A DNA stretch of 64,000 nucleotides, taken from positions 352,001 through 416,000 of the forward strand of contig CAVXYC010000020.1 in assembly GCA_963765765.1 (NCBI GenBank), read 5' to 3'. This document shows, piece after piece, positions 7,001-25,403 of this stretch (the stretch's first letter is position 1; each line of letters begins with the position of its first letter). Below the pieces are notes generated by a model. That model was not told the origin of the DNA and made no database searches. It saw nothing but the letters and a program-made list of their open reading frames with translations. Source of the stretch: an uncultured Chloroflexia bacterium. Lineage in GTDB: Bacteria > Chloroflexota > UBA6077 > JACCZL01. The translations under genes and the position numbers were made by a program.

Positions 7001-7117
7001 GCGCATCGCTGAGAAACACTGTCATACGGCTAGCTCAATCACTCAGTGTCGCGGCAACTTCTCGTGCACTGACTAACGTCCGAGCCATGCTTTCATCGAG
7101 CGAGATTTCCCAACCGA

Positions 7118-7144
7118 TGTCGAATCGTGCCTTCCCCGTTCGAC
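7118..7144 (+). promoter_or_regulatory. putative ECF-sigma promoter TGTCGA-N17-CGAC
   Basis: TGTCGA atcgtgccttccccgtt CGAC about 50 bp upstream of the DHFR-like ATG at 7195. Confidence 0.45.
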
Positions 7145-7194
7145 CTATGAGTGAGCTGGTGCTCCGGCCCACGCATTGAAACGGGAGAGAGAAG

Positions 7195-7836
7195 ATGAGA
7201 AAGATCATTTCGGCCGCGTTCGTCAGTCTTGATGGCGTCATGCAGGCTCCGGGCGGTCCTGAGGAGGACCCAACGGGCGGCTTCGAGTACGGCGGTTGGA
7301 CTGCCCCATACTGGGACGAGAACTTCGGTCAGGGCACGGCGGAGAACTTCGGTCGCCCGTTCGATCTTCTGTTGGGCCGCAAGACGTATGAGATATGGGC
7401 TGGTTATTGGCCACATGTCGACGTCGATCCTAGCGCGAGCACGTTCAACGAGCTGATGGCAGCCATCGCAAACAACTTCAACAGCGCCACGAAATACGTG
7501 GCCACACGCTCAGAACCCGAGCTGACCTGGCAGAACAGCAAGTGGCTGGGCGATGACGCAGTGGCCTCCGTCCGCGACTTGAAGGCAGGCGATGGCACGG
7601 ATCTGCTCATCCAGGGCTCCAGCGACTTTTCCCAGTCGCTCATTGCCGCTGACCTGATTGACGAGTATCGACTGCTGATCTACCCACTGATCCTGGGTAA
7701 GGGCAAGCGACTGTTCGGGGAGGGCGTCGTTCCGGTCGCATTCAAGCTGACCCGCTCGGTTGCTTCGCCGAGCGGTGTGATCGTCGCCTCGTACGAACGG
7801 GACGGTGATATCAAGACGGGTTCATTCGAGCTCTAG
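7195..7836 (+). CDS. DHFR-family (RibD C-terminal) protein, paralog of 1318..2003
   Basis: MRKIISAAFVSLDGVMQAPGGPEED..GRKTYE..LIDEYRLLIYPLILGKGKRLF. Confidence 0.9.
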   Translation: MRKIISAAFVSLDGVMQAPGGPEEDPTGGFEYGGWTAPYWDENFGQGTAENFGRPFDLLLGRKTYEIWAGYWPHVDVDPSASTFNELMAAIANNFNSATKYVATRSEPELTWQNSKWLGDDAVASVRDLKAGDGTDLLIQGSSDFSQSLIAADLIDEYRLLIYPLILGKGKRLFGEGVVPVAFKLTRSVASPSGVIVASYERDGDIKTGSFEL

Positions 7837-7905
7837 AGGTAGACAGCCCGAACCGCAAGAATTCATCACTTGATCAACTCGACCACAAATGAAAGATGAG
7901 ACACT

Positions 7906-8331
7906 ATGAGCTACAAGATTTGCGTCAACCTGCCGGTAAAGCACCTGAAAAAATCAATCGAGTTCTTCAAGGCGCTCGGCTGGACGTTCAACCCCCAGTT
8001 CACCGACGAGACAGCAGCCTCACTGGTCATCTCAGACGAGATCTATGCCATGCTGCTCACGCACGAAAAATTCAGTGAGTTCACCGACCGGAAGATAGCC
8101 GACCCGGGCACGGTAGAAATGACGATCGCCCTCGGCGTCGATAGCAAGGCTGAGGTCGACCGCATCGCGGACGCCGCCATCGCAGCCGGCGGAAAGGAAG
8201 CCGAACCCCCGCAGGATTACGGCTTCATGCAGCAACGGAGCTTTCTCGACCTCGACGGACACGGTTGGGTGGTTCTCTACATGGATCCTGCCCAGGTTGC
8301 AGGCCGCCTCATAATGTTCCGAGCATCCTGA
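7906..8331 (+). CDS. VOC/glyoxalase family protein, paralog of 2089..2496
   Basis: NLPVK..FNPQFTDETAA..QDYGFM..DLDGH. Confidence 0.88.
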   Translation: MSYKICVNLPVKHLKKSIEFFKALGWTFNPQFTDETAASLVISDEIYAMLLTHEKFSEFTDRKIADPGTVEMTIALGVDSKAEVDRIADAAIAAGGKEAEPPQDYGFMQQRSFLDLDGHGWVVLYMDPAQVAGRLIMFRAS

Positions 8332-8432
8332 GCCGGCACGTAAACGGAGCGCAATTCAACCCGGTCGTGGGCGAATCGGCGATGCCGGTTCGCTCGCGAT
8401 TGGCAAATGACCGCCAGGAGAAGGGATCAGAC

Positions 8433-8800
8433 ATGAAGCGAGAAAGCATCGCCTACTGGGTCTTCAACGGGCTCTTCGCCGCGTTCATGGGACTGGGAGC
8501 GATTCCTGACAGGATAATGATTCCGGAAGCGGTCGAGCTGTTCGATCTGCTTGGGTATCCGACCTACTGCTACCGTTTCTCGGTATCGCCAAGTTGCTCG
8601 GGGCAGCGGTTGTGTTACTGCCCGCTCCAGCCACGCTCAAAGAGTGGGCATATGCCGGGCTAGCCTTTGACCTGCTGGGCGCGCTGTACTCCCATCTCAG
8701 GATCGCGACACGAGCTATGGTGGGGCCCGATGATTCCCCTCGTGCTCCTGGTGCCCGCGTACGTCCTTTATCGGAAACGACAATCGCCCGCCGGTGCTTC
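8433..8800 (+). CDS. DoxX-like membrane protein (frameshifted; end approximate)
   Basis: IAYWVFNGLFAAFM..LLGYPTY / LGIAKLLGAAVVL.P..LKEWAYAGLAFDLLGALYSH spread over two frames. Confidence 0.75.
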
Positions 8801-8883
8801 GATTTCAGGGCTCAACTGCCTGACTGTCGCGCCAGCGGGGTTCGCCAGGTCGGGCCATCCACACGTCCCGTCCGCTCACGACG

Positions 8884-9090
8884 CTAGCGCCGGACCAGGT
8901 ACCTGAGGTGGAGGGCACGACGACCCTGGAATACGACCGGGTCGTCGAGGAGCTGGTGCCGCGACCCAGCCCTGCGAAGGGAATTCCATCGCCGACCAGC
9001 ACGGGCACAAGGCTGACGCACACCTCGTCCACCAATCGGAGCCCGAGCGCCTGCTGAGCGATGTTCGCGCTCGCGATACGGACGTCTTCA
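8884..9090 (-). pseudogene. C-terminal remnant of a DHFR-family protein
   Basis: Fragments ASANIAQQALGL, LVDEVCVSLVPVLVGDGIPF and HLRYLVRR*; no N-terminus. Confidence 0.65.
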
Positions 9091-9310
9091 GCACCAGGAG
9101 GCTCTTAATGCGCTCCAGTAGATCATGAGCGACTTACTTGATCTCGGTGCGCTCCTCGGTCGTGAGTTCGGGGGAGGGGCGGGTGAGGATGTCGAAGATG
9201 ACTAGCTCTTCCTCAATTGGGTTTCACAGACGTGCCACTCCTGCTCATCATCCAGGCTGTTACTTAGTTTGAGTAGCTCCTCATAGAGCTCGTCGATACT
9301 GGAGCTCGTC
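9088..9310 (-). pseudogene. hsdR: type I restriction subunit R (HsdR) C-terminal remnant
   Basis: SIDELYEELLKLSNSLDDEQ.. then EELVIFDILTRP..ELTTEERTEIK*VAHDLLERIKSLLVL resembles the HsdR C-terminal (DUF3387-like) region; contains an internal stop. Confidence 0.65.
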
Positions 9311-9357
9311 GATACTGCAGCTGCCGACATTAAGCCCCCGGCGGACATCCTGGATGT

Positions 9358-9421
9358 GCATTTGAACTGAAGATTGAGGTGCGCCCGGAGGGATTCGAAC
9401 CTCCGACACCTGGTTCCAAAG
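9358..9421 (-). repeat. att site: 3' half of tRNA-Arg(TCG) plus about 20 bp of downstream flank; direct repeat of 22751-22814
   Basis: gcatttgaactgaagattgaggtgcgcccggagggattcgaacctccgacacctggttccaaag versus gcatttgaactgaaaatgatggcgcgcccggagggattcgaacccccgacacctggttccgaag. Confidence 0.9.
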
Positions 9422-9772
9422 TTCGGAGCGGTCGTGCGACCCAGTGCTGCGCCCACCATTGCTGAACTGACGGAACTACCTTCCGTGCGGCCGAGAGCCG
9501 CCGGTTCGACGCCTGTCTGACCAGGATTGGGATCACCATTGGGCTCAACTTGCTCGGTGGACTGAACACAAGGAGTCCGGTGAGCGCCAGATCAGCGCCC
9601 GTCTGAGCCAAGTGGCCAGAGCCACCTGGGCCCGCCTTTTACCCGCACCGCTTTGGAGGGTGTGATGTCGCGGCAGACGACCTGTCGATGATTGCACCAA
9701 GCTGGCCGAGAAGGACGGCCTGTGCCGTGATGACTACATCAGGTGGCGCCAGTCGGCTCACAGGGCCCCCGG

Positions 9773-10215
9773 TGACCGTGCCCGCAACCCCGTCACTCAA
9801 CCCTCTCCCGGCCAAGTTTGGGATCGGGTCAGGAGGGCTCGAACGTGCTGGCTCTGGATCGGAAACATCAAGAATGGCTACGCCCGCTATTGGGACGGGA
9901 AGACCCCAGGTCGGCCCACCGTATCGCCTACGAACACTCTGTCGGCCCGATACCCGGGGAACGTTCTCGCCAGTACCTGCCCTGACGGCCCTCAGCATTG
10001 CGTCTACTACGGGACTGGACCCCCGCCCGCCTCGGGCCAGCGCTACGACCGCGCCCTGGGCATCATCGGGACCGGGACGCTGCCGAACAGAGGCTGCCGC
10101 AATGGCCACCTCCAGACGCCCGAAAGCGTCGGCTCCGCCAGGACTCGCGTCACCGCTCTGCCTGGAATGCCAGCGTATCGCCCGGGTGCGCCAAGCCGCC
10201 CGTGGGGCGCACTTG
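9773..10215 (+). pseudogene. phage-type HNH endonuclease-like gene, multiply frameshifted
   Basis: Joined frames read KFWDRV..TCWLWIGNIKNGYARYW..AHRIAYEHSVGPIPG..TC..HCV..CRNGH..CLEC, the layout of phage HNH proteins with a C-terminal Zn finger. Confidence 0.7.
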
Positions 10216-10265
10216 GACAACTCGCGTACTGGGACGCAATCCCACCGGGAGGCTCGGCAAACGCA

Positions 10266-10290
10266 CAAAAACGGGGCCCTCGTGGCCCCG
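10266..10290 (-). terminator. rho-independent terminator
   Basis: Minus strand CGGGGCC-ACGAG-GGCCCCG followed by TTTTTG. Confidence 0.6.
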
Positions 10291-10406
10291 GCGTTGCAGA
10301 GCTATCCCGGTTCATCGTTGCCAGACCGAACGGGACCAGGTAAGGCCGCCTGGGGGCACATCCGTCTGCTGCCCGGGAGGACTACACGCTCGCATCTCCA
10401 TGGGTC

Positions 10407-10438
10407 TTGACAGCTGCCCGGGCGTATGCAATATTGCA
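10407..10438 (+). promoter_or_regulatory. sigma70-like promoter with an overlapping palindrome
   Basis: TTGACA-17 nt-AATATT; the palindrome TGCAATATTGCA covers the -10; GGAGG RBS and ATG follow at 10478. Confidence 0.45.
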
Positions 10439-10477
10439 CGGGTACCGCGTCTGCAAGCTCCTCGTGGAGGTCCCGCC

Positions 10478-11517
10478 ATGCTGCACCGTGCCGTTCGGTT
10501 CCTGATGCTGACGTTCCTGTTGGCCGGAGCTCGGCGTTCGCCCTGCTGCCGGTGGGGACGGCGATTGCGGCCCCACCGACGCTCACGGTGAGATCGCTCA
10601 ATGCGGGCCTGGCACTACTCGGATCAACGCTGACGGCCGCATGCTCGACGCCGAACACACTGACCTTTAGCGCTTCGGGAGTGCAGTCATCGAGTCCCGA
10701 ATGCCCCTATCCCGGCCCCTTCACGGAGCAGGGGACCCTGACCCGCGACCCGGCATCGGCCAGTACACCTTCGCGGCGACCTTCGAGATCCAGAGTCACC
10801 ACCGGGACCGTCACTGGCACCAAGAGCGCCGCGTACGTTACATTATCCCAATGGCATTGGCTTCGCTTGTTCCGGCAGCACGGCACGATCGGCTTCAAAC
10901 TTTCCAGCGAGCTACACCGCCCGCATCGAGACTGCCGAGGCGTCTTCAGTGTCAGTCGCACCTTCTTTAGACTGTCCTGGCTCCTGCTGTGCCTCACCTG
11001 CCCATCGCAGCGACTGCACTAGGACAATGTTCACTCGTCGCAGCAAGAAGCTGACCCTGCGTCGTTAAGACGCTCGCGGCAAGCACCGCACCAGCCGACG
11101 CCGACCGGCGCGGTCGCCTGGACCCGTCCTCCTTCCGCCGCCTGCGCGACGATGTCCTCAACGCGCTCCGGGGGCGGGCAGCGCTATGTCCGCCTGTACG
11201 AAACCCACAGCCCGGAGATCGTCCGCCTGATGCTGGAGGATTCGAATCTGCGCACCGAGCTGCGGGACGGGCTGCTGCTGTGGCAGGCCGATCTGGCGGC
11301 GCTGGCCGACGGGCGCGGCGGCAGTGCCACGATCGACGCCGAGCAGGTGCGGGCGGCCGAGGCGGTGCTGGACCGATTAGCGGCAAAAGGCAGTCCGAGG
11401 CTACGCCGGGCGATCGAGCAGGAGCGCCGGGCGCACCCGCCCGCGAGCTTCGTGGGCAAGCCGCTCGACCGGGCGCTGGACGAGCTACGCGCGGGCAAGC
11501 CGGAGCGGGACCGTTGA
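10478..11517 (+). CDS. secreted protein with a CFI-box-CTERM-like C-terminal domain (several frameshifts)
   Basis: Signal peptide MLHRAVRFLMLTFLLAG..; C-terminus PCVVKTLA..SFRRLRDDVL..GQRYVRLYETHSPEIVRLML. Confidence 0.55.
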
Positions 11518-11625
11518 CTCGGGTCGGGCTGATGCGAACGAGGCGCGCCCAGCGGCATGAGAACCGACCTCCGGTTCGGGCAGGCTGTTCCCCCAAACGG
11601 CGCGCCTTGGCGGTCGAGATTCACA

Positions 11626-12934
11626 ATGACAGCGCGGCATAACGCGACTGTATACGTGGGCATGAGCGCGGATCTCCTCCATCCCGGTCATCTCAAAGTA
11701 ATCGAAGCCGCGCGGCAGCTGGGACACGTCATCGTGGGGCTACTCACGGACAAGGCGATCGCGAGCTACAAGCGCTTGCCCTACTTGAGCTACGAGCAGC
11801 GCGAGATTATCGTCAGAAACATCAAAGGCGTGGAGGAAGTTGTCGCTCAGGAAACGCTCGATTACGTGCCAAATCTCAACAGACTCCGACCAGACTTTGT
11901 AGTTCACGGTGATGACTGGATTGAGGGCGTGCAGCGGAAGACGCGCGAGCGGGTGATACAGGCCCTCCGGAAGTGGGGAGGAGAACTCGTCGAATTCCTT
12001 ACACTCAGGGAATTTCTTCAACGCTCTCAATCGTCAGCTCCGAAAGATTGGTACCACTCCTCAGATCCGCTTGAAGCGCTTCAGACGCCTACTGAACTCG
12101 AAGCTACTTGTGCGCGTCCTCGAGGCGCATAACGGGCTCACCGGACTGATCATCGAGAATACCGAGATTACCGTGGAGGGAGTGCCTCGCGAGTTCGACG
12201 GCATCTGGATCAGTAGCCTGACGAATTCAGTTGCGAGAGGCAAACCAGACATCGCACTTGATGTAAATGCTCGGCTCAACACGATTAACGAGATCCTCGA
12301 GGTCACCACCAAACCAATCATCGTCGACGGTGACAATGGCGGGCAGCCAGACCATTTCACCTTCCTGGTTCGGACGCTTGAACGACTGGGGGTGTCCGCC
12401 GTAGTCATTGAAGACAAGGCTGGGGAGAAGAGAAACTCACTCTTTGGCCAGGATGCGGGCCAGTGTCAGGACAGCATCGACAGGTTTACGAAGAAAATAT
12501 CCATCGGCAAGCGAGCGCAAGTCACGGAAGATTTCATGATTTTCGCGCGAATCGAAAGCTTCATTCTTGGCAAAGGATATGTCGATGCCGTAACGCGTGC
12601 GAGGGCGTACAGCGAAGCCGGAGCCGACGGAATTCTGATTCATAGCAATAAGAGCACTGGAGCCGAGGTCGTTGCGTTCTCTCAGGAGTTCGCGACGTTC
12701 ACGAATCGAGTACCACTTCTAGTCATTCCGACTATGTACGATAGCGTCCACGACGACGACCTGACCAAGTTGGGAATTAACGTCGTAGTGTACGCGAACC
12801 ATCTGCTGCGAAGTGCCTACCCCGCGATGGTCTACACTGCCGAGGTCATCTTAAGAAACGGAAGAGCGTTTGAAGCAAGAGAGCACTTGATGCCGGTGGA
12901 CGATTTAATCACGCTAATACCTACGCCCCCATGA
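11626..12934 (+). CDS. pepM: cytidylyltransferase-phosphoenolpyruvate mutase fusion (frameshift near 12000)
   Basis: N-terminal HPGH (HxGH) CyTase domain with VVHGDDW; PepM part [14 protein letters not shown] and signature [10 protein letters not shown] (EDK-X5-NS). Confidence 0.93.
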
Positions 12935-14097
12935 TGCTGGAGCCTCGAGACTTTTTTGACAGTCTTGGCAAGGCTGGTGTCAGTTTTTATACGGGTGTCC
13001 GGATTCGTTGCTCAGAGACTTCAACGCGTATGTCGCTGAGCATCAAGCCAACCACGTCGTCGCGGCCAACGAGGGGGGTGCAATCGCCCTTGCCGCTGGA
13101 CATTATCTCGCTACCGGGCAGCTCGCATTGGTATACATGCAAAATTCCGGCTTGGGAAACGCCGTCAATCCGCTCGTGTCCCTCGCGGATCCCGTCGTCT
13201 ACGGCATCCCGATACTCCTCCTGATTGGCTGGAGAGGTGAACTCGGGAAGAGGGACGAACCCCAGCATATTAAGCAGGGAGCGATAACGTTAGAGCTCCT
13301 AGAGGCTCTAGGGATGCCGTACGCCGTGATCGATGCGTCGACTGGAGGATATCGAGTTAGTAACGCGTGAAGCGGCAGCGATTGCAAAGGCCAAGTCATG
13401 CCCATATGGACTCGTAGTCCGGAGAAAACCTCAAAGAATACACACTTCAGAAGGATCTCCGGACGCGCTATTCGCTTACGCGTGAAGACGCATTAAAGGC
13501 CATCTTGGAAACAGTCGGCGACAACGCTGCCGTTGTGAGCACGACGGGAATGGCATCGCGAGAGATATTTGATACCGGGACGCACTGGACCAGAGCCACG
13601 CCCGTGACTTCCTCACGGTGGGCTCGATGGGTCATGCGTCGCAGATTGCGCTCGGTATCGCGCGCGCCACACCAAATCGAGATATTTACTGCCTGGACGG
13701 TGATGGCGCTGCGATTATGCACCTGGGTGCACTAGCCATCGTAGGCTCTCTGGCACCCGCGAACTTCCGCCACATGATCATCAATAATGGCGCGCACGAT
13801 TCGGTCGGTGGCCAGCCAACGGCCGGGCTCGATATCGATTTTTCCGGAATTGCGCTGGCCTGCGGTTACACAAACTGCATGGTGGCCGGGTCGGAGGACG
13901 AGATCGCGAGTGGCATGCAAGCGCTCATCTCCGTGCCAGGCCCTACGCTCCTGGAAATCAGGGTGACTAAGGGTAACCGGTCGGATCTTGGTAGGCCTAC
14001 AACAACACCTTTGGAGAACAAGGCACTATTCATGGAGTTCTTACGCCGTGAAACCAGCGGCGCACATTGGATTCGGCAGCGTCCAGCATCTCGGTGA
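12931..14097 (+). CDS. aepY: phosphonopyruvate decarboxylase (frameshifts)
   Basis: FYTGV(PDS)LL, ANEGGAIALAAG, YMQNSGLGNAVNPL.SL, DEPQHIKQG, GSMGHASQIALG, DGDGA..MHLG, NNGAHDSVGGQPT. Confidence 0.92.
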
Positions 14098-15150
14098 TTT
14101 ACTGCCGGGGTACGACGCGCACGCGGTGCTCCTTGTCACAGGAGGTGCGAGTTATTCGCTTCCGGTGCTGAAAAGGCCCTCGACCTCACCTGCGACTGCA
14201 GGAACTCCATCGCTTCTCCGGGTTCTCGAATAACCCGAAGCTGGGGGACGTTGAGTCCGGCATTGAGCTCTATCGGAAGGTGAAGCCCGACGTCGTTGTG
14301 GCCGTTGGTGGCGGTAGCGTGATCGACATGGCGAAGCTCATCAATGTGTACGCGGCCGAAGGTGTCTCGGGCAATGTGACGGTCGGCGTGCCACTGATCG
14401 CGATCCCCACGACCGCTGGTACGGGCAGCGAGGCTACTCAGTTCGCACGGTTTACATCGAAAAGCAGAAACACTCAATCTCGAACGAGGCGCTACTGCCC
14501 GATGTGGCAATCGTCGACCCGGCGCTGACTCGGAGCTTACCGCCGCTCGTGGCAGCGGCCAGCGGTATGGACGCGCTGAGCCAGGCTATCGAATCGTACT
14601 GGTGTGTCAACTCAACAGACGAGTCGAAAGATTTCGCAAGAGAAGCGATCGGTCGGATCGTGCCCCACATTAGAGAGGCTGTGCACGCGGCGTCCGACGA
14701 ACCGAGGCTAGCAGTGGCGCAGGGCGCACACCTCTCGGGCAAGGCTATCAACATCACGAGGACCACGGCGCCCCATGCACTGTCCTACGCATTGACATCC
14801 CGGTTTGGTGTTCCCCATGGCCAGGCGGTGAGCCTTACTTTCCGGACATGTTCGAGTTTAATCAGGGAGTCACGGCGGAGGATACGACAGACACCAGGGG
14901 CGCTGAGTATGTTAAGCGGATCCTTGGAGATATATGTGCCTTTCTCGGATGCCGCACCGTGACTGATGCCAGCGGAATGCTTCGACAGCTCATGCTTGAC
15001 ATCGGCTTGGCAACAACCTTTGCTGAGTTGAAGGTCGATAGACAGCAGGCGATCGAAGTTATGGTTCGTGAAGTCAACGCGGAGCGCCTCGTTAATAATC
15101 CGAGACGCCTAACGGCGGAGCACTTGCGAATGTTACTTGGCGGCCTTTGA
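14048..15150 (+). CDS. Fe-dependent alcohol dehydrogenase, probable phosphonoacetaldehyde reductase (frameshifts)
   Basis: GGGSVIDMAK, PTTAGTGSEAT, DALSQAIES, AINITRTTAPHALSY, HGQAV, C-terminal RLVNNP; lies directly after ppd. Confidence 0.88.
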
Positions 15151-15153
15151 GCC

Positions 15154-16316
15154 ATGGAACCGCCGATTGTCCTTGCATCCCCTCGAGAGCCATCGGGCGG
15201 TTCGTGGCTCATCAACTGCCTCCTCGAACTCGGCGTCCGAGTCAATCTCCAGCCCACAGCGGATCGCATCTGGCGCGGTGCTAGCGGCCGCCAGCGGCCC
15301 TCTGTCATGTGGCAACCTGCGGAGAACGGCCGCTGGCGGCTGAATCCACGCGCCGAGGAGCTAAAGAAGTGGCTACCGATCCTGGGACACCAGGAAACGC
15401 TCCACTTTCGAGACGATCTCGAGGTGCTTTACGTGCAGGATCTGCCACAGGTCGACCTCACCAGCGCGCGCACGGTACTCTTCGTCCGGGACCCGCGAGA
15501 CGCAATCCATTCGCTGTATCGACGCATCCAACCCGAAATGTCGCTCGAGGACTTTGTTGCCTTCCCGCATCCGGTGACGCTTCTCGATGCCATTGACCAC
15601 TGGCGGCTGTTCACCGAGTGCTGGCTTGCAGTCGATGGCACGCTCATCTACCCATTCGAGGACTACAAGGCGGACGCTCCAGGTCTCTTGAGCCGGATCG
15701 TCAGAGACCTTGGGCTCGTGGCCTCACGAGAGGAGATCACTCGGGCCGCCAACGAATCAACCTTTGAGAAAGCACGGGCTGGCGATCAACGGTACCGTTC
15801 GTCGCATCCAGGAACAAGAACATTGCAATGCGCGCGGGACAGGTTGGCGAATGGAAGACCTCGCCTGAACTCCGCCAACTGTCCCGCGAGATCGAGAGAC
15901 GCATGGGGTCCATCCTGATCAAGCTCGGCTACATGCCTCACGACGAGCTAGAGGCAGTTTCCAACATCGGGAGTACTTCGCAGTTCCACTTTCTCAGAGC
16001 GTTTGAACGCATCGAGCTGCCATCAGATTTGCGCAAAGTTGTGAAATCCAGCGACCCGATGGCGTGCCCGAGACTTCCAGCAATACTGAAACTAGCATCC
16101 ACTGCTGACGCTGATCTTATGCGACGCGCGCGGTTGCACCCGCTTGAGGCACGTACCTTATTCGATACTCTCCAGGAGTACGTCGCTGCTTGGCATGACT
16201 GCTATCGCGGTCGATTTAACGCGGCTCGGGCGGCATTCGATGATGGCGCCGCCTATCACATGACTCGGATTCGCGAGCTTATGACGAGTCGCCGCCTCGC
16301 ACAGAACTTGGAGTAA
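15154..16316 (+). CDS. sulfotransferase-fold protein with C-terminal extension (frameshift near 15815)
   Basis: 5' loop-like LASPREPSGGSWL, 3'-phosphate-binding FVRDPRDAIHS, FEDYKAD, STFEK and RAGQVGEWK (RKGxxGDWK-like). Confidence 0.8.
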
Positions 16317-16322
16317 GCTCGA

Positions 16323-17695
16323 TCAGGCTGACCCGCTAGCCTCCGCCTCGTCACTCGCCAAATCGCCCGCTGCATGAGCCATTGATGGGACAAAGGAGGG
16401 CAGGATAGTACGAAGGCGTCCCGTAGACGCTAGATGCATGAGTAGGCTGTGGCTGTCGCCCGTTTCGTTCTGTAGATGCACTGTCACGCCGGGACAGTCG
16501 GCCAGCCAGTCGGCGAATTCTCTATCGCGCTTATTCAGGGCGGAGTACCAGATGCTATACCGCGTGACTCCGTTGTACTCGGAGAGTAGGCTCCTGAGCC
16601 GCGCCATGGCTTCGTCAGAGCCATTGAGTCGCACGGTGCGCGGCGAAAACGCCCACACTGTCTGCATTCTGCACAGATGCCCAAACGTTAACGCTCCGTA
16701 ACTGCCGCTCGAATAACCGACACTATGTAACTCTCGCACGTGCGGGAGGGAGCTGGCATAAGACGATATCCAGCCCGCTAAAGACTCTGTGTCTGGGATC
16801 TCAGCGCTAATCCCATGAGTAAAGTTCTCGAGATAGGGATCACGGATATACAGTAAATTGCGCCGGAGAAGACCCCATCGTCTCATAGCTTCTATCTGGG
16901 AGCCAGTAGCTTTACCATCTCGACTACCCATTATGGCATCAATACCACCAAATATTACGAAGAGCTGCGCACAGTCTTTCCTCTCTAACTGCACGACCGG
17001 TTTTCTTGATTCAGACTGCTTGAGCAAGTAATTCCGAAACCATGGTAATTCCGAGAAGGATGGCGGCACTTTATCCAAGAATTGCAATATCTGACTCGCT
17101 ATCCGAGTAAGCCGATAGCCTGATGTAATCCCCAGTTGCGAGTCGGCAGTTGCTAAGAACTGAATGACCCGTTCAGATAGCAGGCTTTCAGCTTCAACTG
17201 GAGATAACGCAGCTGTGTCAAGCTGCAATTCAGAATTGCTACGCTCATAAGGGTGAGTGACCCCGATAAAGCAATCATATTCAGAAGCAAAGGCTCGCTG
17301 ATAATTTCCCTTAGTATCCCGGGCTGAGCAGACAGCCACAGGGCAGTCGAGATAAACTTCGAAGAATGGGCTTAATCGATTCCGAGCCATGACACGCATA
17401 GATGCACGATGTGCAATTGCTGCAATGACAACCACTTTCCCCGACTTCATCTCCGTGCTGGCTTCCTCGACTAGTCTTCGCCACACAGCCTCCCGGTCCT
17501 GGGGCGATGTCCGTAACGGCCTCCAGAGTCGGGCTCGAAACTCTTCACCGTCAATCAGCACAACGTTGTCAATCCCGAGCTCATTCAAGCGGGATACCAA
17601 CGCACGGGCCAGGGTCGTCTTACCGGATGCAGACAACCAGTGAGCAAGATTGCGGCGGAGGGCCATGCTTGCACGTTGCTTGGATGCCCGCTCAC
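16323..17695 (-). CDS. CysC/adenylylsulfate-kinase-like domain fused to an alpha/beta-hydrolase-like domain
   Basis: Restoring one T near 17638 gives AILLTGLSASGKTTLA from a GTG at 17695 that overlaps the upstream TGA. LIDGEEFR, EVYLDCP..C.ARD.KG.Y, PYE; C-terminal domain has VGYSSGSYGA (GxSxG). Confidence 0.8.
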
Positions 17696-18435
17696 CTGCG
17701 CTTGCCGATCCAGACGCGCGTCGTATACGGTATGCTGGCCGTCTCCGGACACTCTCGCAACACGAGATCTTCGATCGTCGTTACAATCTCGTTGAAGCGG
17801 CTCCCCGCTTGACGCACTAATGTCGCGTGCGAGGACCAGGCAGCAAGCCAGGCTTTGGTGCTCTGTTCGTACACAAACGATACTTCGAAGCGGTGAACCG
17901 AGGCGAACAAGCCAGAAGATTCGATGAATTTGGATTGATCTGCGCGTCGATCGCCGTAGCTATAGCTCGGCACTTCCCGCTGAATCAGGGTCTCGATTTT
18001 GCTCTGTAAGGGATCATCGAGATCGCGATGATTGAATAGGACCGCCAGCTGACCGCCGCTGCGAAGTAATCTCCGGGCTTCGCGAAGCGTCGCATCGTAG
18101 TCCGCCACCCCAAACGATGAACCGTAGGTCAGAAGGGCGAACGCACCGTCTTGCAGACCGGTCTGCTCCATCAATGCATCGTGCCACCAAACGTTGGGCA
18201 ATCCCGAGGTTCGCGATTCGCCAATTTCCCTCATTCGTGGATTCGGTTCGACAGCTATCACATCGAGATTTCGAGCTGCAAGCTTCAGTGTCAGATGACC
18301 GGTCCCGGCACCGAGGTCCAACACGGGGTCACCCGCATTCAGATGAGCGACTTCAACCAGCGTGTCAATTGCGCCATCGGCGTAGTTTGGCCGGTGGGAA
18401 TACGATTCGGCCAAAGCCGTGTAGTCCCACTCCAT
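17692..18435 (-). CDS. class I SAM-dependent methyltransferase
   Basis: MEWDYTALAESYSHRPNY, VLDLGAGTG, AVEPNPRMR, C-terminal IPYTTRVW. Confidence 0.9.
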   Translation of the reverse strand: MEWDYTALAESYSHRPNYADGAIDTLVEVAHLNAGDPVLDLGAGTGHLTLKLAARNLDVIAVEPNPRMREIGESRTSGLPNVWWHDALMEQTGLQDGAFALLTYGSSFGVADYDATLREARRLLRSGGQLAVLFNHRDLDDPLQSKIETLIQREVPSYSYGDRRADQSKFIESSGLFASVHRFEVSFVYEQSTKAWLAAWSSHATLVRQAGSRFNEIVTTIEDLVLRECPETASIPYTTRVWIGKRR

Positions 18436-18493
18436 GTTCGCTTTCCTTTCGACGACCATCTCGGCCCTGCACAGAGACTTGAAGGCCGCGCAG

Positions 18494-18769
18494 TTACGGT
18501 GAAGGCGGCTGGTCGATGTAGTGGGCAATGAGGTCGCTTAACGTCCCGATAGTTCGGAAATACTCCTCCTGAAAATCGGCCTCCAAGAATTCGAAGTTGA
18601 AGCGTGTCTCGAGTGCCGAGATGAGTTCGACGACGCTGAACGAATCAAGACCTAAGCCGCCATCAAACAGCGGAGTATCTCGGCCAAAGACTCCAGTAAT
18701 CTCCGGCGGGTTGAACTCCTCCTTTATGATGCCTTCAATAGCACCGACGATCTCATTCTGGTCAGGCAC
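18494..18769 (-). CDS. acyl carrier protein
   Basis: 91 aa, acidic, phosphopantetheine site GLGLDSF. Confidence 0.88.
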   Translation of the reverse strand: MPDQNEIVGAIEGIIKEEFNPPEITGVFGRDTPLFDGGLGLDSFSVVELISALETRFNFEFLEADFQEEYFRTIGTLSDLIAHYIDQPPSP

Positions 18770-18903
18770 GCGACTCGTGTCTCCCCGTTAGTAGCTTTCG
18801 TGATGAGCTCGGTACCGCGCGTTCTGAATCGTGCGCGAAGCGGACCAACCGCTGATGGGCCGTCCTTTGCAGCCCCTCGACATGAGACTCCCGGAGCGTT
18901 GTG

Positions 18904-20316
18904 TCAGGATATCATGGCGGCTAGCGCCAGACGATCAGGCTTCGCCATGGCCGTCAGCGGCAATTCGTCCACGAATAGAAAACGATCGGGTACCGCATGC
19001 CCGGGCAGATGGTCAAGCGCCATTCGACGCAGGGTCGTAACGTCCGGCGTAACGTCCGGGCTCGTCGTGCAGACGGCCACCAGTTCCCTGCCTCTCGCCG
19101 TCGTCCCGCCTAGAACAATCACCGCACGCTCAATGGCGCCCAGTCGTTGCAGTGCGCGTTCGATATCCGCGAAGACCACCAGGAAACCATCCCGCTTGAC
19201 GCTATCGTCGAACCGACCGGCCAGGTGTAGCCGTCCTGTGGCGTCCACTCGACCCAGATCCATCGTGCGATACCAGCCGTCCCGGTAGAGTGATCGTGGC
19301 TTCCTAACTATCCCGTCTATATCGGCGTAGCCTGCACAACCGTACGGATGGTCAAAACGCAACGGGAAGGGCTCGTCTGCCAGCCGAGAGGCGCTAGGCG
19401 GCGCCAGCCTCAGACCTGGTAACGGAAGTTCCGGCCGTGTCTCGCCGCTCGAGAAAAGGGTCATCCGGGCTGCCGGCGGAAATGGCGCCCAATTCTGTCG
19501 AACCATACAAACTGACCGTACAACCATACCGTCGCTCATACTCAGCAAATGTGTATTCGTCGGTGGCATCGCCTGCTAGGACCGTGAGTCGGGTACGGTC
19601 TGGCCCTGCTTTCGCCCCTTCACTAGCAGAGCACAGAATGCAGGGGTGAGGAAGGCAACCGTGGGCTCGAATTCCGATTCGGCCCGGAGGTACTTCAGGA
19701 GGTTCGCCTCGGGTATCAGGCGAACCGACGCTCCGGCCAGCGCGGCCAGGGAGGAATGCCGCCCCAAATCCATACATGTGTGCCAGTGCAACGGGGATCA
19801 CGACCCGGTCCGACGCGTCCATTTTCAGGCGAGTCAGCAGTTGCGCGCGTTGCCCAGCAAAATTTCCGGCTTCATAAGCCACGATCTTCGGGCTTCCTGT
19901 TGTGCCCGATGTCCTGAGATAGACGTACGAAGGCGCCCCATCGCTCTCATGATGAGTTTCTTGTCCAATCTCCGGACGATCCGAAAATATGGCCGGCCAT
20001 CCCAGCTTGGGTGACGGCTTGGCCGTCGGTGTCGAGCAGAACTGTGCGGCAGAACGCTGGCAAGGCCCCGGGCACTACTTGACCGCTCTCGACGGAATCG
20101 GCCGCCGCCATAACAACACGGATTGCTCGCGGGAGAGGAGTGCAAGGAGAGCCGCCCCGCTACGAGCGTCGGTGCGAACGTGCAGTGCCACGCATTCGCC
20201 AGGCGAGACACCATTTTCGCTGAGCCATGCGTCCCACCGTGGCGCTGCGCCCGTACCTGTTCGTACGTAACGGCACCGTGCTCGTCCGAAATGTAGCCGT
20301 CGCCCGTAACCGCCAT
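18904..20316 (-). CDS. AMP-binding acyl-CoA/acyl-ACP ligase (frameshifts; start approximate)
   Basis: TSGSTGSPK-like loop near 19900 (split by a frameshift), LAHMYGFG, YGSTELG, YRTMDLG, GRFDDSVKRDG, LPLTAMAKPDR. Confidence 0.85.
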
Positions 20317-20547
20317 CCTTAGACTCTAAGATTTCTCGCCGGTGGTAGCGACGTCGTCCCCGCGTGGCCACCACCGGTCTGTCCTGGGGCTGGTCGCGAT
20401 CTTGCCCCTGATTGACTTGACCGCCGCTCGCTGCAGGCGCATCACACCGTGCTTCCGGCGAAGCGATATCGTCCGCTGGGGCTGCACGAGGCGGCACCGA
20501 TTTGCTCGTTTCAATGCTCCACGCTATTGAGAGATGAGAACTCCATG

Positions 20548-21341
20548 CTAGCAGGGCACCGTAACAGACCTGCTGCGGTCCTTCACCTCTTTCGTCATCC
20601 ATATGAGCTTTTTCTCTCCCAGGCCGACGATACGGGGTTTCTGACATCCGACCTCATTTCGCCAGAATTCCGTGTCCGCAAAGACGTCGATTACGAGAGG
20701 AAGATGACCATCCTAGAGTAGAGTGTGCCACCATTCATAAGCAGCGGATAGAGATACTTCAGGCAAGTGCGCGTTGAAGCAGCGAGGTCCACATCCATGT
20801 AATTGCTGCGATCGATTTGCGGAACCGGGCATGGTTTCTTCGAACCATCCAGGCACGAAACGGCACACCTCTGGACGGCCGAATCGTGCTACATTCGCCT
20901 TCACCTCGTCTATCGTTCCGCAGTATGAGCCCTTCGCAAATTTTTCCGGCCGACCGAAATGTTCCGGTCGTGCGGCTCGTTGTTGTACGGCAGGCCTTGG
21001 AAGGAATCGAAAACAACAAGCTCCCGACCAGCGAAGGCTGCCGCCAAACTAAACTTCGCGGTGCTCATCCCCTATAGGCTCCGGCCTCAACCACGACACC
21101 CGAACTGCTCGGTGGGAGAGAAAATCGTACGCATGAATACCAACATCTCCTCTTGTCGGTGAGGACTGTCGATGGCGAAGCTTGCCGCGTAGAGTTCCTT
21201 CACGATCCGCAGGCGGTCACTGAACGAAATGGACAGAGCGTGGTTGAGCACGAAGGCTGCGCAGGCCAGAAGGTCGCGCCGCTCTCGGATGGCGCGACGA
21301 ATACTGTAGGGCGGTCGGGTTAGGACGGCTTCTGCTGACAT
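20548..21341 (-). CDS. TylF/MycF/NovP-family O-methyltransferase (frameshifts)
   Basis: VVEAGAYRG.ST, VFDSFQGL, FVPGWFEETMP, DVDL.ASTRTCLKYLYP, DGHLPLV. Confidence 0.85.
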
Positions 21342-22044
21342 ATCCTTGCTGGCGAACAGATACCGATCTCATCTCGGCAGACGTCGATGAACCCGGGCGG
21401 TCGACAACTGTTCGCTCAAACGCTGGCTCGTCTGGCAATGCTGCCCGTTGCAGTAACGGACCGCGGAGGCACAAATGCCGTCGGCAGTCGCTCCCCCCTC
21501 CGTCACGAAAGGCTTGGGTTGGGGAACCAGGGACGTGGGCGGAACCGTACTCCGAGTGTTTGCGGGAGTCAAGTGTTATGGCGCTCTCGTTGGCCAGGAC
21601 TTGCCTTGTCTCTGCGCGGCTGGCCTCCGCGGTCTTCGCCTTTTGGGCTCCTCTACGGTTCTGTAGCATGCCACTGCCCTGGCAAAGCCGCGACGCCGAG
21701 CATCACCATGGTGCTGGCCCCCAGTTCGCGATCTGCGCCAGCCCGAGCTTTAGGGCCAGTTCTCCAGCGTCCTGCACATCGATCGCCTACTCGCCATCGG
21801 CAATTCCTTACTCATGACCAGATCTGCATCGGAACGCCCATATTATGCTCCCCGCCCGCGCGCAATAGCCCACTTGCCCACTGAGTTGGGCCACACTGAT
21901 GCTTTCTTGGAAGAGTTTCTTTTCCTTCACGGTTCGGCGTTGAGGACAGTGCCTGTTTCACCAGAGCCGAACTCATAGGGTCTCTCGGTTGAGAGTGGCA
22001 TATGACGGTCGTATCGGTGGCTCTCGTTGCAGCTCTCATACATC

Positions 22045-22068
22045 AGTAGTCCGTGGAGTAGTCCGTGG
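22045..22068 (+). repeat. tandem 12-bp repeat (AGTAGTCCGTGG x2), resembling an integrase arm-type site
   Basis: Exact tandem copy about 700 bp from the tRNA att site. Confidence 0.55.
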
Positions 22069-22227
22069 CAGACCCGACTCCCGAAGTGCCGCCGCCCGGT
22101 TGGAATGAACAGCTTCTCGACGCTCCACTCGAGGGCGGCGAATGCCGCACCGTCTTCGCCGGTCTCGGAGCCTGGCATCGTCCGTCATCGGCACGGAAGC
22201 GGGCTACCTCATCCAGCCCCCCGCAGA

Positions 22228-22433
22228 TTCGTAGGCGAAATGGTGGGTCGACCTCCATGTCTTCCCGACCCAGTAGCGGGCGAACGCTTTCTTGATGTTT
22301 CCGAGCCATAGTCAGCATGTTCGAATTCTCTTGACCCGATCCAGAAGTTGGCCGGGAAAGGGTTCAGTGCCGAGGCTGCTGGCACGGTCATCGGTGACCC
22401 TAAGTGAGCCGCCTGGCGCCACCTGATGTAGTC
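22228..22433 (-). pseudogene. second, inverted and truncated copy of the HNH-like gene start
   Basis: Reverse complement GACTACATCAGGTGGCGCCAGGCGGCTCAC..CTCGGAAACATCAAGAAAGCGTTCGCCCGCTACTGG..GCCTACGAA aligns to 9732-9934. Confidence 0.75.
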
Positions 22434-22769
22434 CTTAGATTAGTGCTTGAGTGGTCTGCGTCGCGGTCAGATTAGCTGCTTCGACGGGAAACACGCCCGT
22501 CGCGTCAGCAGGGTAACTTGCGACGCTATCAATGTGCCGCAGCAGCAGGGCCGTGCCTGAATTTCGGAGCGCCACAATCGCTCGCGGACCGCTGGTCCCG
22601 ATCCCACTTAAGCAAAATCCACACTACGACACCCGCGACCGCAGCTCCCTCAGGGTTCTGCTGCGAAGTTCCACAGGATGTCACCCCTATCGGCTTCAGA
22701 ACGAATGGAGGTAACCGCAGCAAACGCGCTGCTCGCAGCACAGCTAACGGGCATTTGAACTGAAAATGA

Positions 22770-22845
22770 TGGCGCGCCCGGAGGGATTCGAACCCCCGAC
22801 ACCTGGTTCCGAAGACCAGTGCTCTATCCGCTGAGCTACGGGCGC
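22770..22845 (-). tRNA. tRNA-Arg(TCG)
   Basis: GCGCCCGTAGCTCAGCGGATAGAGCACTGGTCTTCGGAACCAGGTGTCGGGGGTTCGAATCCCTCCGGGCGCGCCA; full cloverleaf with CCA. Confidence 0.95.
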
Positions 22846-22905
22846 CTACGATGTCCCTTGTCGTTGCACGACGCGGCGCCCGCGTCCAGACTCAGGAGAG
22901 ATGCA

Positions 22906-22982
22906 TGGGGTGAGCGAGGGGATTCGAACCCCCGATCTTCAGGGCCACAACCTGACGCCTTAACCGCTAGGCCACGCCCACC
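22906..22982 (-). tRNA. tRNA-His(GTG)
   Basis: GGTGGGCGTGGCCTAGCGGTTAAGGCGTCAGGTTGTGGCCCTGAAGATCGGGGGTTCGAATCCCCTCGCTCACCCCA; includes G-1 and CCA. Confidence 0.95.
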
Positions 22983-23911: not shown

Positions 23912-25330
23912 ATGAATGCGACTGCACCGGGTCACTGGCGACCAACTCGCGATCTCATGATCTCTGCAGTGCTGGTTGGTGTTATCGCAGCGGGTATCCG
24001 CATCGCCTTCAATCCGCTGATCCCTCCGCTGCTGAACCCGGACAGTGAGGGCTATGTGCAGGCGGGGTGGAATCTGTTCCACGGGTCTGGCCTTGATCTC
24101 GGCTTACGGAGAACCCCAGGGTACGGAATGTTCATTGCGGCGGCCTTCGGTCTGCTGGGGGAGCGACTCACCTCCATCGTCGCGGCGCAACACGCTCTCG
24201 GTGTCATTAACGCCCTGCTCGCGTTGGCGCTTGGACGAATGGTCCTGGGCACCGTCGGTGGGCTGGTGATGGGAATCCTGACCGCGCTTTCCGGTCCCTT
24301 GTTGCTCTACGAGCATTTCGTCATGACAGAGATGCTCTCCACCACAGCCCTCCTCGTAGCGACAATTGCGATGCTTCATGCTTTAGCAGCGCGTACATTT
24401 GGCTGGGCGATGATCGCGGGTCTCTGCACGGGCGTGGCACTGCTTTGTCGGCCGGCCCTGCAAATCGTGATGTTTGTCGGCGTAGCTGGCTTCGCCATCA
24501 TGTTCTGGCGCTCTCCACGGCAACTGGCCCTCACCGCTGGAGCGTTCATCGTTGGCACGAGTGTCTTCATGCTTCCGTGGATGCTCAAAAACGTGGTGAT
24601 ATACGACGCGTTCACAATGGCTGGCTCCGGTCGTCATCTCCTATTCCGCCTGATCAGGTCAGATGCTGGGTTCAGCTTTGCTCGTCCGGAGGGTTTGACG
24701 ACGCCCGAGCCAGAGCCCATGGCGGGAGCCAGACGAATTCTGATGGAGCAGGCTGCCAAACATGACGGCAGCTCTAATTACCAGCGATTTCGCGAAGAGC
24801 TTGGCCTCAGCGAGGCTGAGACCAACAAGCTTCAGACGTCCCTCGCACTCGAGGCGATTCGACAGCAGCCCGTCTACTTCCTCATGGGCACGCTGGACAT
24901 CTTCGGTCGGGTATTCGTTGGCGAGCCGATAAACCTTCGCCGCGAAGGGTCCGATCTGTCAGAAGTCGATTGGGATAGGCCCATCCGCCATCTCGTGAAT
25001 CCGACGCCTCCCCGGGGAGACCGCAACACCGCACAACTATTGCTCAGCATCTGGGACCCCGGCCGCTGGGGCGCGCTCATCCCAGCAATCTTCACCATCG
25101 GCGTTCTCAGCGCAATGCTTCGGCGCTCGGGGCCGGTGCTCATGGTCGCGGTGATCGCACTGGCGCCGCAGGTTCTCGGAGCCGCCATGGCGGGTTACGC
25201 GCTGCGATTCCGCTACCCGTTTGACCCGCTCATTGCTATCGTGGCCTGGTACGGAATCTGGAGCGCCGTTGCCTTGCTTGCCGGCTTCTCGGCCGGGCGC
25301 TTTACTGGCGCACAGAGACAGCCCGCGTAG
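23912..25330 (+). CDS. multi-TM GT-C/ArnT-like glycosyltransferase
   Basis: PDSEGY, RTPGY, EHFVMTE, LCRP, PWMLKN, RFRYP motifs; many TM segments. Confidence 0.75.
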   Translation: MNATAPGHWRPTRDLMISAVLVGVIAAGIRIAFNPLIPPLLNPDSEGYVQAGWNLFHGSGLDLGLRRTPGYGMFIAAAFGLLGERLTSIVAAQHALGVINALLALALGRMVLGTVGGLVMGILTALSGPLLLYEHFVMTEMLSTTALLVATIAMLHALAARTFGWAMIAGLCTGVALLCRPALQIVMFVGVAGFAIMFWRSPRQLALTAGAFIVGTSVFMLPWMLKNVVIYDAFTMAGSGRHLLFRLIRSDAGFSFARPEGLTTPEPEPMAGARRILMEQAAKHDGSSNYQRFREELGLSEAETNKLQTSLALEAIRQQPVYFLMGTLDIFGRVFVGEPINLRREGSDLSEVDWDRPIRHLVNPTPPRGDRNTAQLLLSIWDPGRWGALIPAIFTIGVLSAMLRRSGPVLMVAVIALAPQVLGAAMAGYALRFRYPFDPLIAIVAWYGIWSAVALLAGFSAGRFTGAQRQPA

Positions 25331-25403
25331 ATCACCTTGGTTAGCATGCCCACGTGCTAGACTCCTCGCCGCCCATACCACCGATATCCTGGAGGGCTCA
25401 CCC

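Follow-up and report, generated by a model that had tools for sequence, protein, structure and literature searches.

A 64,000-nucleotide stretch of DNA from an uncultured Chloroflexia bacterium (GenBank assembly GCA_963765765.1, contig CAVXYC010000020.1, positions 352,001 to 416,000 of the forward strand; hereafter the window) carries, at 11.6-21.3 kb, an islet of nine genes in two convergent blocks, the plus-strand block facing the minus-strand block. A first-pass annotation, made from the sequence alone, had read this islet as a candidate system for activating and transferring a phosphonate by way of a donor resembling 3'-phosphoadenosine 5'-phosphosulfate (PAPS). Our Pfam scan of the window's gene fragments recovers the gene list, coordinates, order and strands given there. 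What the first pass had not noticed is that seven of the nine genes are not open as assembled; only the methyltransferase and acyl carrier protein genes are intact. The features are, in window coordinates:

11626..12934, plus strand: cytidylyltransferase domain (CyTase, PF01467) apparently fused to phosphoenolpyruvate (PEP) mutase (PepM); Pfam and TIGR02320 matches; one-base frameshifts near 11994 and 12023
12931..14097, plus strand: phosphonopyruvate decarboxylase (Ppd); TPP_enzyme_N and TPP_enzyme_C; about five frame pieces
13988..15150 (start approximate), plus strand: group III iron-dependent alcohol dehydrogenase (ADH) of the PhpC/FomC type; Fe-ADH and ADH_Fe_C
15154..16316, plus strand: sulfotransferase-fold protein (ST-like), candidate phosphonyl transferase; Sulfotransfer_1; frameshift near 15813
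16323..17695, minus strand: kinase-like domain of the adenosine 5'-phosphosulfate (APS) kinase type with a C-terminal alpha/beta-hydrolase-fold domain (GYSSG); APS_kinase
17692..18435, minus strand: class-I S-adenosylmethionine (SAM) methyltransferase (MT) of the cassette family described below, intact; Pfam class-I SAM domains
18494..18787, minus strand: acyl carrier protein (ACP), intact; PP-binding, 33.4 bits
18904..20653, minus strand: acyl-AMP/CoA ligase with about ten frameshifts; AMP-binding and AMP-binding_C
20650..21341, minus strand: TylF-type O-methyltransferase in at least four pieces; match to a gene of locus L011, with six frameshifts
22770..22981, minus strand: tRNA-Arg(TCG) and tRNA-His(GTG), on the right flank of the islet

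At the left end of the islet, matches to CTP_transf_like (51.6 bits at 11557-12129) and PEP_mutase (173.2 bits) lie side by side, split by two frameshifts, and the PEP mutase equivalog model TIGR02320 scores 358.9 bits for 11957-12931 (cut-off 319.55), the sole match above cut-off in this 6.49-Mb, 33-contig genome. The same two domains form one intact open reading frame (ORF) of 434-448 residues in four homologous loci (L011, L012, L014 and L016). Ppd is 50% identical to its L011 counterpart over 379 codons, with five frameshifts and no stop codon, and the dehydrogenase fragments match Fe-ADH (97 bits) and ADH_Fe_C (63.5 bits). On the minus strand, the ligase fragments match AMP-binding (55.8 bits) and AMP-binding_C (28.5 bits) and align with the ligase of a JGI metagenome contig, L005, at 55% identity over 502 codons, likewise with no stop; ACP and MT share 49% and 64% identity, respectively, with their L005 counterparts, the MT with no frameshift. 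The TylF pieces have no Pfam match of their own and are 62-79% identical to an intact gene, L011:8727-9509, whose product is a TylF protein (PF05711, 70.4 bits). The stop codon of MT and the GTG start codon of the kinase overlap as GTGA at 17692-17695, as had been noted in the first pass, and we likewise find no ATP sulfurylase gene in the islet. Nor does the islet, whose whole length the nine genes occupy, contain an aminotransferase gene or, according to Pfam, a LicD-type or CDP-alcohol-type transferase among its nine genes. A canonical APS-kinase domain (240 bits, within a 660-residue frame on contig C11) is encoded elsewhere in the genome.

Comparison with other genomes reveals that kinase, MT and ST-like protein constitute a conserved cassette which is combined with either of two gene sets for the phosphorus-containing head group. 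Motifs of the ST-like protein led to 47 loci, namely L005 and 46 loci in species-representative genomes of about ten phyla (including Planctomycetota, Acidobacteriota, Pseudomonadota, Spirochaetota, Bacteroidota, Nitrospirota, Omnitrophota, Verrucomicrobiota, Chlamydiota and Campylobacterota), and neighbours were counted within 10 kb of the ST-like gene. An APS-kinase-like gene is present in 44 of the 47 loci and an MT of the window's family in 43. The head-group set found most often is of the type that serves O-methyl phosphoramidate (MeOPN) biosynthesis: a ~780-residue PPDK_N/PEP-utilizers protein resembling glutamine kinase (36/47), a Peptidase_C26/GATase protein (32/47) and a nucleoside-triphosphate (NTP) transferase (37/47). 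In L034, a locus from Campylobacterales, the glutamine-kinase-like protein reaches 958 bits with NF004508 (cut-off 501), and the best NCBIfam match of the GATase is gamma-glutamyl-CDP-amidate hydrolase, with 147 bits below the cut-off of 250. The other set, present in five loci (L005, L011, L012, L014 and L016) and in the window, is built around PepM, with CyTase fused to it in four of the five (the fifth is cut by a contig end), and with Ppd and ADH in three loci each. Hence the co-occurrence of kinase, ST-like protein and MT with PepM, for which the first-pass annotation had proposed to search, is found in five further loci.

The pairing of the cassette with a head-group set is exclusive. 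Genes for glutamine kinase, GATase and NTP transferase are lacking in all five PepM-type loci and in the window islet, PepM is lacking in all 36 glutamine-kinase loci, and none of the 47 loci combines both sets; no match to NF004508 above cut-off exists in the five PepM-type genomes, including the one from which the window derives. The loci with neither set are short or cut contigs, with the exception of L038, to which we return below. In L014 the genes for ADH, CyTase-PepM, Ppd, MT and kinase follow one another head to tail on one strand, and intact PepM-type clusters are present in three cultured Rhodobacterales: Actibacterium atlanticum (L014), Alexandriicola marinus and Flavimaricola marinus.

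The window kinase matches APS_kinase (PF01583) with 97.2 bits. Its intact L005 orthologue scores 99 bits with TIGR00455, the model of canonical CysC, against a cut-off of 138.7, and remains below the cut-off of every adenylyl-sulfate-kinase model of NCBIfam. With 84.3 bits it also remains below the cut-off (127) of NF004041 (PRK05541), which we take to be the model for the Cj1415-type cytidine diphosphoramidate kinase and with which the L034 kinase reaches 209.5 bits. In a 62-row tree (an L050 fragment was dropped) the kinases fall into three groups: (i) canonical CysC, including the genome's own, (ii) a glutamine-kinase-linked clade of 38 rows (branch value 99), and (iii) a PepM-linked clade of 12 rows (branch value 98), in which all seven rows with known gene context are PepM-linked. 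The first-pass annotation had proposed to place the window kinase either with CysC or with Cj1415. It is indeed not a canonical CysC, but it does not belong to the MeOPN-type clade either: it resides in the third, PepM-linked clade, together with hydrolase fusions and a triple fusion. Campylobacterales kinases whose genes adjoin glutamine-kinase genes fall inside the glutamine-kinase-linked clade (66-row tree, from which L044 and L048 were dropped as long branches).

Within the PepM-linked clade the consensus DGEE...I(A/S)H...MR replaces the canonical motifs LDGDN, NIRR and ISP. The architecture of the window protein, a kinase domain followed by a C-terminal extension of ~260 residues, recurs in eight metagenome proteins of 45-60% identity; the extension contains a GYSSG elbow, and an Atlas look-up of the homologue P0006 assigns it an alpha/beta-hydrolase fold. 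Gene fusions tie these kinases to nucleotidyl activation, in that a 745-residue protein, with five cluster representatives, joins kinase, PepM and NTP_transf_3 domains, and P0061 consists of the kinase domain fused to an NTP transferase.

The ST-like protein is only marginally recognized by Sulfotransfer_1 (PF00685; 22.0 bits for the window fragment, at the cut-off of 22, and 18.3 bits for L005). It is a single continuous protein of 390-408 residues in 28 relatives (398-401 residues in L005), and a profile of the family retrieves 200 cluster representatives at E <= 1e-30 among 1.84 billion. Comparison of this profile with sulfotransferases of the PDB yields E 5e-10 and establishes homology at the level of the fold with the solved cytosolic enzymes. 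The two regions that in sulfotransferases contact the 3'-phosphonucleotide are kept: the 3'-phosphate motif R-x7-S (RDPRDAIxS, aligned to RNPKDxxVS of the solved enzymes) and the C-terminal RxGxxGxW (RAGxVGEW, aligned to RKGxxGDW), with R117, S125, R232 and G234 invariant in 19 sequences. At the N-terminus, an invariant (E)PSGx(S/T)W takes the place of PKxGTTW, the 5'-phosphosulfate loop which carries the catalytic Lys in PAPS-dependent sulfotransferases; none of 148 ST-like representatives contains a PKxGTT-like motif. We give little weight to the missing Lys, because a related bacterial sulfotransferase-like group (SGASAI) is devoid of it as well. The profile alignments begin past the position of the catalytic His, and no conserved His is evident nearby. 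Among ten long representatives that were scanned, three (P0162, P0174 and P0214) are fusions of the ST-like protein with a methyltransferase, and in P0098 it is fused to Sulfotransfer_3.

Trees of the three cassette proteins are discordant. In the MT tree (an L045 fragment was dropped) the six PepM-type proteins form one side of a branch with value 99. In the ST-like tree (fragments from L040, L042, L051 and L054 were dropped) the six PepM-type proteins share a clade, likewise with value 99, with those of four Planctomycete loci that have the glutamine-kinase set. Three of these four loci also carry ligase, ACP and hydrolase genes, as PepM-type loci do; the kinases and MTs of those Planctomycete loci group with the MeOPN type. 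Kinase and MT are thus seen to go with the head group, and the ST-like protein with the putative acceptor context. Such a pattern would agree with a kinase whose substrate is the activated head group, an MT that modifies the phosphorus group after its transfer, and an ST-like protein that joins donor to acceptor.

Some neighbours of the cassette in other loci deserve mention in their own right. B12-binding radical SAM proteins are encoded beside it both in the PepM-type locus L011 (10924-12972, minus strand, 683 residues) and in the MeOPN-type locus L034 (7509-9899, plus strand, 797 residues); the former recalls Fom3, which methylates cytidine monophosphate-activated 2-hydroxyethylphosphonate (CMP-HEP). 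The L014 cluster abuts opgG/opgH/opgC-like genes (780-5382, minus strand: a GT2 glycosyltransferase, MdoG with 606.8 bits and OpgC with 352.4 bits), that is, periplasmic-glucan machinery and a possible lead to an acceptor; a GT1 glycosyltransferase and a thioesterase are additionally encoded in L005.

Of 201 sampled genomes of Campylobacterales, 11 encode a glutamine-kinase homologue above cut-off. In four loci that were fetched, genes for NTP transferase, GATase and glutamine kinase are followed in this order by two tandem MT genes, with a kinase gene in addition, and a hidden Markov model (HMM) of the cassette MTs, with the window MT included, matches both tandem MTs in all four, at 244-291 bits. 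The resemblance of 17692..18435 to Cj1419, which had been pointed out in the first pass, is hence correct at the level of the family, the tandem MTs occupying the position of Cj1419/Cj1420. It had further been stated that Cj1419 and Cj1420 are established methyltransferases of the MeOPN locus; in print, no function has been assigned to them (PMC11800397). None of these four loci encodes an ST-like protein (best E 0.62). Two of them have Sulfotransfer_3-like ORFs beside the kinase gene and one has DUF2972 proteins (Sulfotransfer_3 matches of 30.5 and 38.3 bits, cut-off 27, and DUF2972 matches of 88 and 147 bits, among L075:12776-14050 and L076:13117-14529 on the minus strand and L073:6266-8101 and 13395-14702 on the plus strand). 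These ORFs are candidates for the transferase in those loci; profile comparison of the ST-like family with the DUF2972-type and Sulfotransfer_3-type ORFs is not significant (E 0.85 and 0.056, respectively). PepM above cut-off occurs in 18 of the 201 genomes, and five of six CyTase-PepM loci fetched from this order have no such kinase. The locus L090 (G210:C1:395700-415600) has three APS-kinase-like ORFs around CyTase-PepM-Ppd and a 613-residue NTP-transferase-like ORF, with neither cassette MT nor ST-like protein; it matches a passing remark by Li and Horsman (2022; PMC8942020) on adenylsulfate-kinase genes beside ppm-ppd in Campylobacter ('GCF 385').

Based on these comparisons, we suggest the following route for the window islet and its PepM-type relatives. 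PepM, Ppd and ADH would form 2-hydroxyethylphosphonate (HEP), which the CyTase domain fused to PepM would convert to CMP-HEP. The APS-kinase-like enzyme would then phosphorylate the 3'-OH of the cytidine and thus provide 3'-phospho-CMP-HEP, a PAPS-like donor from which the ST-like protein would move the hydroxyethylphosphonyl group to a hydroxyl of the acceptor, releasing cytidine 3',5'-bisphosphate. Finally, the cassette MT would O-methylate the P-OH of the transferred group, as in MeOPN. Ligase, ACP, the alpha/beta-hydrolase domain and TylF probably build or trim an acyl-bearing acceptor, so that the product might perhaps be a lipid-like O-methyl-HEP ester; this acyl-bearing acceptor is the weakest part of the proposal, and in view of the genes that accompany the L014 and L005 clusters a glycan or glycolipid acceptor is equally conceivable. 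Domain identities, the conserved cassette, its exclusive pairing with one or the other head-group set, the separate kinase clade and the fusions are direct observations, whereas the chemistry throughout, the sequence in which transfer and methylation take place and the nature of the acceptor are inferred. Taken as a whole, the route from HEP via CMP-HEP and 3'-phospho-CMP-HEP to ST-like transfer and methylation appears to us, on balance, somewhat probable. The interpretation advanced in the first pass receives strong backing from comparison, with each link of its chain independently supported in this way and none contradicted.

Several known systems resemble parts of the proposed route. In fosfomycin biosynthesis, Fom1 (a CyTase-PepM protein) together with FomC makes CMP-HEP for Fom3. 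The window shares with that pathway Ppd, the group III Fe-ADH and adjacent CyTase (PF01467) and PepM domains, which are fused in intact homologous loci, and L011 also has the adjoining B12-binding radical SAM gene; however, the window has no homologue of Fom3 or Fom4 and instead has the kinase, the ST-like protein and two methyltransferases, so that CMP-HEP would here be a group donor rather than a scaffold for C-methylation. APS kinase and PAPS-dependent sulfotransferase form a pair in, for example, NodQ/NodH. Such pairs belong to the same domain families as the window proteins, have the same motifs for binding a 3'-phosphonucleotide and likewise show a kinase gene beside that of the transferase, but the window kinase departs from the APS-kinase equivalog model and motifs, its ST-like protein has no PKxGTTW loop, and the partner genes are concerned with phosphorus groups and not with sulfur. 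In C. jejuni, the glutamine kinase set (Cj1415-Cj1418) has been credited by the Raushel laboratory with the formation of CDP-phosphoramidate 3'-phosphate, the likely MeOPN donor (PMC11800397). Common to both would be a nucleotide-activated phosphorus group that is 3'-phosphorylated by an APS-kinase-like enzyme, and the likeness extends to the MT, which is of the same family as the methyltransferase-like proteins at the position of Cj1419/Cj1420, and to the trio of kinase, MT and ST-like protein, which sits with MeOPN-type genes in 36 loci. In contrast to MeOPN, the head group in the window derives from PepM, Ppd, ADH and a PF01467 CyTase instead of glutamine kinase, a Cj1416-type transferase and a Cj1417-type hydrolase, the kinase belongs to a separate clade, and the candidate for the transfer, for which Cj1421/Cj1422 are needed in C. 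jejuni, is the sulfotransferase-fold ST-like protein. Finally, in PntC-type systems with LicD-type or CDP-alcohol-type tailoring (see PMC8942020), a transferase fused to PepM activates a phosphonate with a nucleotidyl group, and a glycan or lipid then receives it, much as would be the case here. The window, however, has neither type of transferase; an additional 3'-phosphorylation and a sulfotransferase-fold transferase are proposed for it, and its phosphonate would be HEP and not 2-aminoethylphosphonate.

Several observations weigh against the proposed route. As assembled, the window's kinase, ST-like protein and all HEP genes are broken. The loci were collected via the ST-like protein, so that its presence in them is by construction, and L038 (Polaromonas sp., 14,788 bases) encodes an ST-like protein (33% identity) with no gene for kinase, MT, PepM or glutamine kinase. 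The ST-like protein occurs in only two of the 201 Campylobacterales genomes; being that rare in an order with glutamine kinase, it leaves the known MeOPN organisms to use another transferase. The substrate of the window kinase cannot be read from that of Cj1415, because the kinase lies outside the MeOPN-type clade. Moreover, a Sulfotransfer_3 gene, whose product would need real PAPS, is present in four of the five other PepM-type loci (L005, at 6140-7264 on the plus strand with 107.5 bits, L012, L014 and L016); the window has no such second gene. One alternative is ordinary sulfation, in which the kinase would be a dedicated APS kinase topping up PAPS, the ST-like protein would sulfate the phosphonate product or a lipid or glycan acceptor, and the MT would be unrelated tailoring. 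The Pfam names of both proteins, the retained 3'-phosphonucleotide motifs of the ST-like protein, the Sulfotransfer_3 genes of those four loci and the P0098 fusion agree with this view. We nonetheless consider it quite improbable, given that the L005 kinase fails TIGR00455 and all adenylyl-sulfate-kinase cut-offs, that the window kinase stands outside the canonical clade and lacks LDGDN, NIRR and ISP, that a canonical APS-kinase domain already exists elsewhere in the genome, that kinase, MT and ST-like protein are found together with the MeOPN enzymes in 36 loci, and that the kinase is found fused to PepM and a nucleotidyltransferase. The consistent (E)PSGx(S/T)W in place of PKxGTTW points the same way, though with little weight.

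Alternatively, the cassette may be tied to phosphonates and yet work otherwise: the kinase could act, for example, on HEP, on the acceptor or on another nucleotide, CMP-HEP could be transferred without 3'-phosphorylation, or the ST-like protein could have a different role. That the PepM-linked kinases form a clade apart from the MeOPN type makes the comparison with Cj1415 one of analogy and not of orthology, the profile alignment does not place the catalytic residues of the ST-like protein, and the Campylobacterales CyTase-PepM loci devoid of a kinase imply that CMP-phosphonates are used elsewhere without one. A sulfotransferase fold with an intact 3'-phosphate motif, however, needs a 3'-phosphorylated nucleotide, which is just what the family of the adjacent kinase makes in the MeOPN pathway; the fusions of kinase and nucleotidyltransferase place the kinase immediately after nucleotidyl activation, and the islet encodes no other transferase. 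A different mechanism of this kind hence seems unlikely to us, and the transfer of HEP from a 3'-phosphorylated CMP donor continues to be the reading that we prefer. Going beyond the window, one may tentatively view ST-like proteins as general phosphorus-group transferases for which cytidine nucleotides with a 3'-phosphate (3'-phospho-CDP-amidate or 3'-phospho-CMP-phosphonate) would be common donors, much as PAPS is for sulfotransferases, with a ligase-ACP-hydrolase acceptor module that is exchangeable between head groups and with O-methyl hydroxyethylphosphonate esters as products in the PepM-linked clade, an extension for which we would put the chances a little short of even.

The islet has features of an accessory element. 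Its G+C content is 0.54-0.59, compared with 0.60-0.66 in the surroundings, and at a distance of 1.4 kb it is followed on the right by two tRNA genes. The ST-like family was found in one of 61 genomes spanning the same genus to the same class, that one being the window's own, and a DNA search of 40 relatives for a counterpart of the islet returned short, chance-like matches only. A scan of species genomes with patterns of the kinase-hydrolase protein yielded no relative, and a scan of metagenomes yielded a single locus, L005. The tRNA flank, the low G+C content and the absence of the ST-like protein from the 60 other related genomes suggest a horizontally acquired island.

To map the broken reading frames, intact homologues from L005, L011 and L014 were aligned to the window DNA with frame changes allowed, which locates 32 one-base frameshift events. 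Not a single stop codon occurs among the 2,749 codons that could be aligned, nor among those that were skipped. At 23 of the events a base is missing in the window and at nine there is an extra base; they are distributed over CyTase-PepM (2), Ppd (5), ADH (4, all with a base missing), ST-like (2), kinase (3), ligase (10) and TylF (6). In the kinase gene, one event is disrupting, with a base missing from the P-loop codons near 17636, and a nearby pair is compensating. The frame from the GTG start stops after 37 codons, and the open kinase ORF, 447 residues from the ATG at 17666, starts without the first P-loop glycine; Walker A (GLSASGKT) is encoded only if the deletion near 17636 is read through, and homologues read AILLTGLSASGKTT. 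The islet stands out within its genome: the 10-kb segment that holds it has a long-ORF cover of 0.298, the 22nd lowest among 1,247 such segments (median 0.713), and six genes elsewhere in the window look whole, with end-to-end matches to Pfam models.

Contigs from three soil-metagenome sequencing runs contain stretches 90-99% alike to the islet, with patchy cover and small islet shares (0.19, 0.10 and 0.06), the bins 14670-15036, 15404-15770 and 19808-20908 having no cover. These contigs of relatives show single-base indels within 3 bases of five inferred sites (12024, 12998, 13343, 14159 and 14181), the direction matching each time; the extra T after 12024 comes from a short-read contig, and the indels at 14159 and 14181 are present in contigs of two runs. 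Substitutions relative to these contigs are mostly in third codon positions. Assembly error is favoured over decay because the frameshifts are numerous, because most of them lack a base, and because neither nonsense codons nor large deletions accompany them. We are thus rather confident that they are consensus indel errors of the long-read metagenome assembly in a region of poor cover. The alternative, that this genome acquired the cluster horizontally and now retains a genuinely decayed, non-functional remainder of it, would concern this copy and not the function of the family. It could call on the concentration of frameshifts in the islet while the other window genes are whole, on the low G+C content, on the restriction of the ST-like family to one related genome and on the indel sites, which are mostly not long homopolymers. 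Neutral decay is disfavoured because it would also yield stop codons, and the excess of frameshifts over nonsense changes and the predominance of missing bases bear the signature of consensus errors; the third-position differences from the relatives' contigs also speak against decay, which we regard as rather unlikely. In either case, the badly assembled or decayed stretch may reach beyond the nine genes.

Around the islet, the segments 7900-11550 and 21390-22700 of the window have no long ORFs, and additional indels are present in the contig of a relative at 21462, 21493 and 21519. None of the four ORFs to the left of the islet (9.6-11.5 kb) belongs to a Pfam family. Intact genes farther right, at 23912-28506 and 37108-38614, encode a PMT_2 glycosyltransferase, a DUF3500 protein (335.6 bits), an IclR regulator and an MsrP/MsrQ-like pair (Oxidored_molyb and Ferric_reduct). 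A scan for promoters and terminators was uninformative, with one promoter-like site compared with 4.3 expected and five terminator-like sites compared with 9.8 expected.

The current explanation for the decoration of lipids and glycans with phosphonates is that the phosphonate receives a cytidylyl group and is then passed on by a transferase of the LicD or CDP-alcohol type. Neither 3'-phosphorylated CMP-phosphonates nor a phosphonyl or phosphoramidyl transferase with a sulfotransferase fold were found described in the open full-text literature, that is, outside subscription journals and supplements, and the claim of the first-pass annotation that such a route is undescribed holds within that scope, where only passing mentions exist. 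One of these, in bioRxiv 2024.11.05.622173, concerns Borgs, in which MeOPN-like genes adjoin a gene for a fusion of PepM with a cytidylyltransferase. As late as 2025, the steps of MeOPN decoration were still regarded as awaiting elucidation (PMC12409886). If our proposal is correct, a 3'-phospho-CMP-phosphonate and its use by a sulfotransferase-fold enzyme would represent a second, hitherto unrecognized logic for the attachment of phosphonates, and phosphonate methyl esters would be predicted as a new class of products. The same comparison singles out the ST-like proteins as candidates for the still unassigned enzyme that transfers the phosphoramidate in MeOPN-type decoration, in many bacteria of some ten phyla other than Campylobacter. 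The presence of intact clusters in three cultured, non-pathogenic marine Rhodobacterales makes the idea directly testable, and it may thereby bear on the cycling of phosphonates in the sea.

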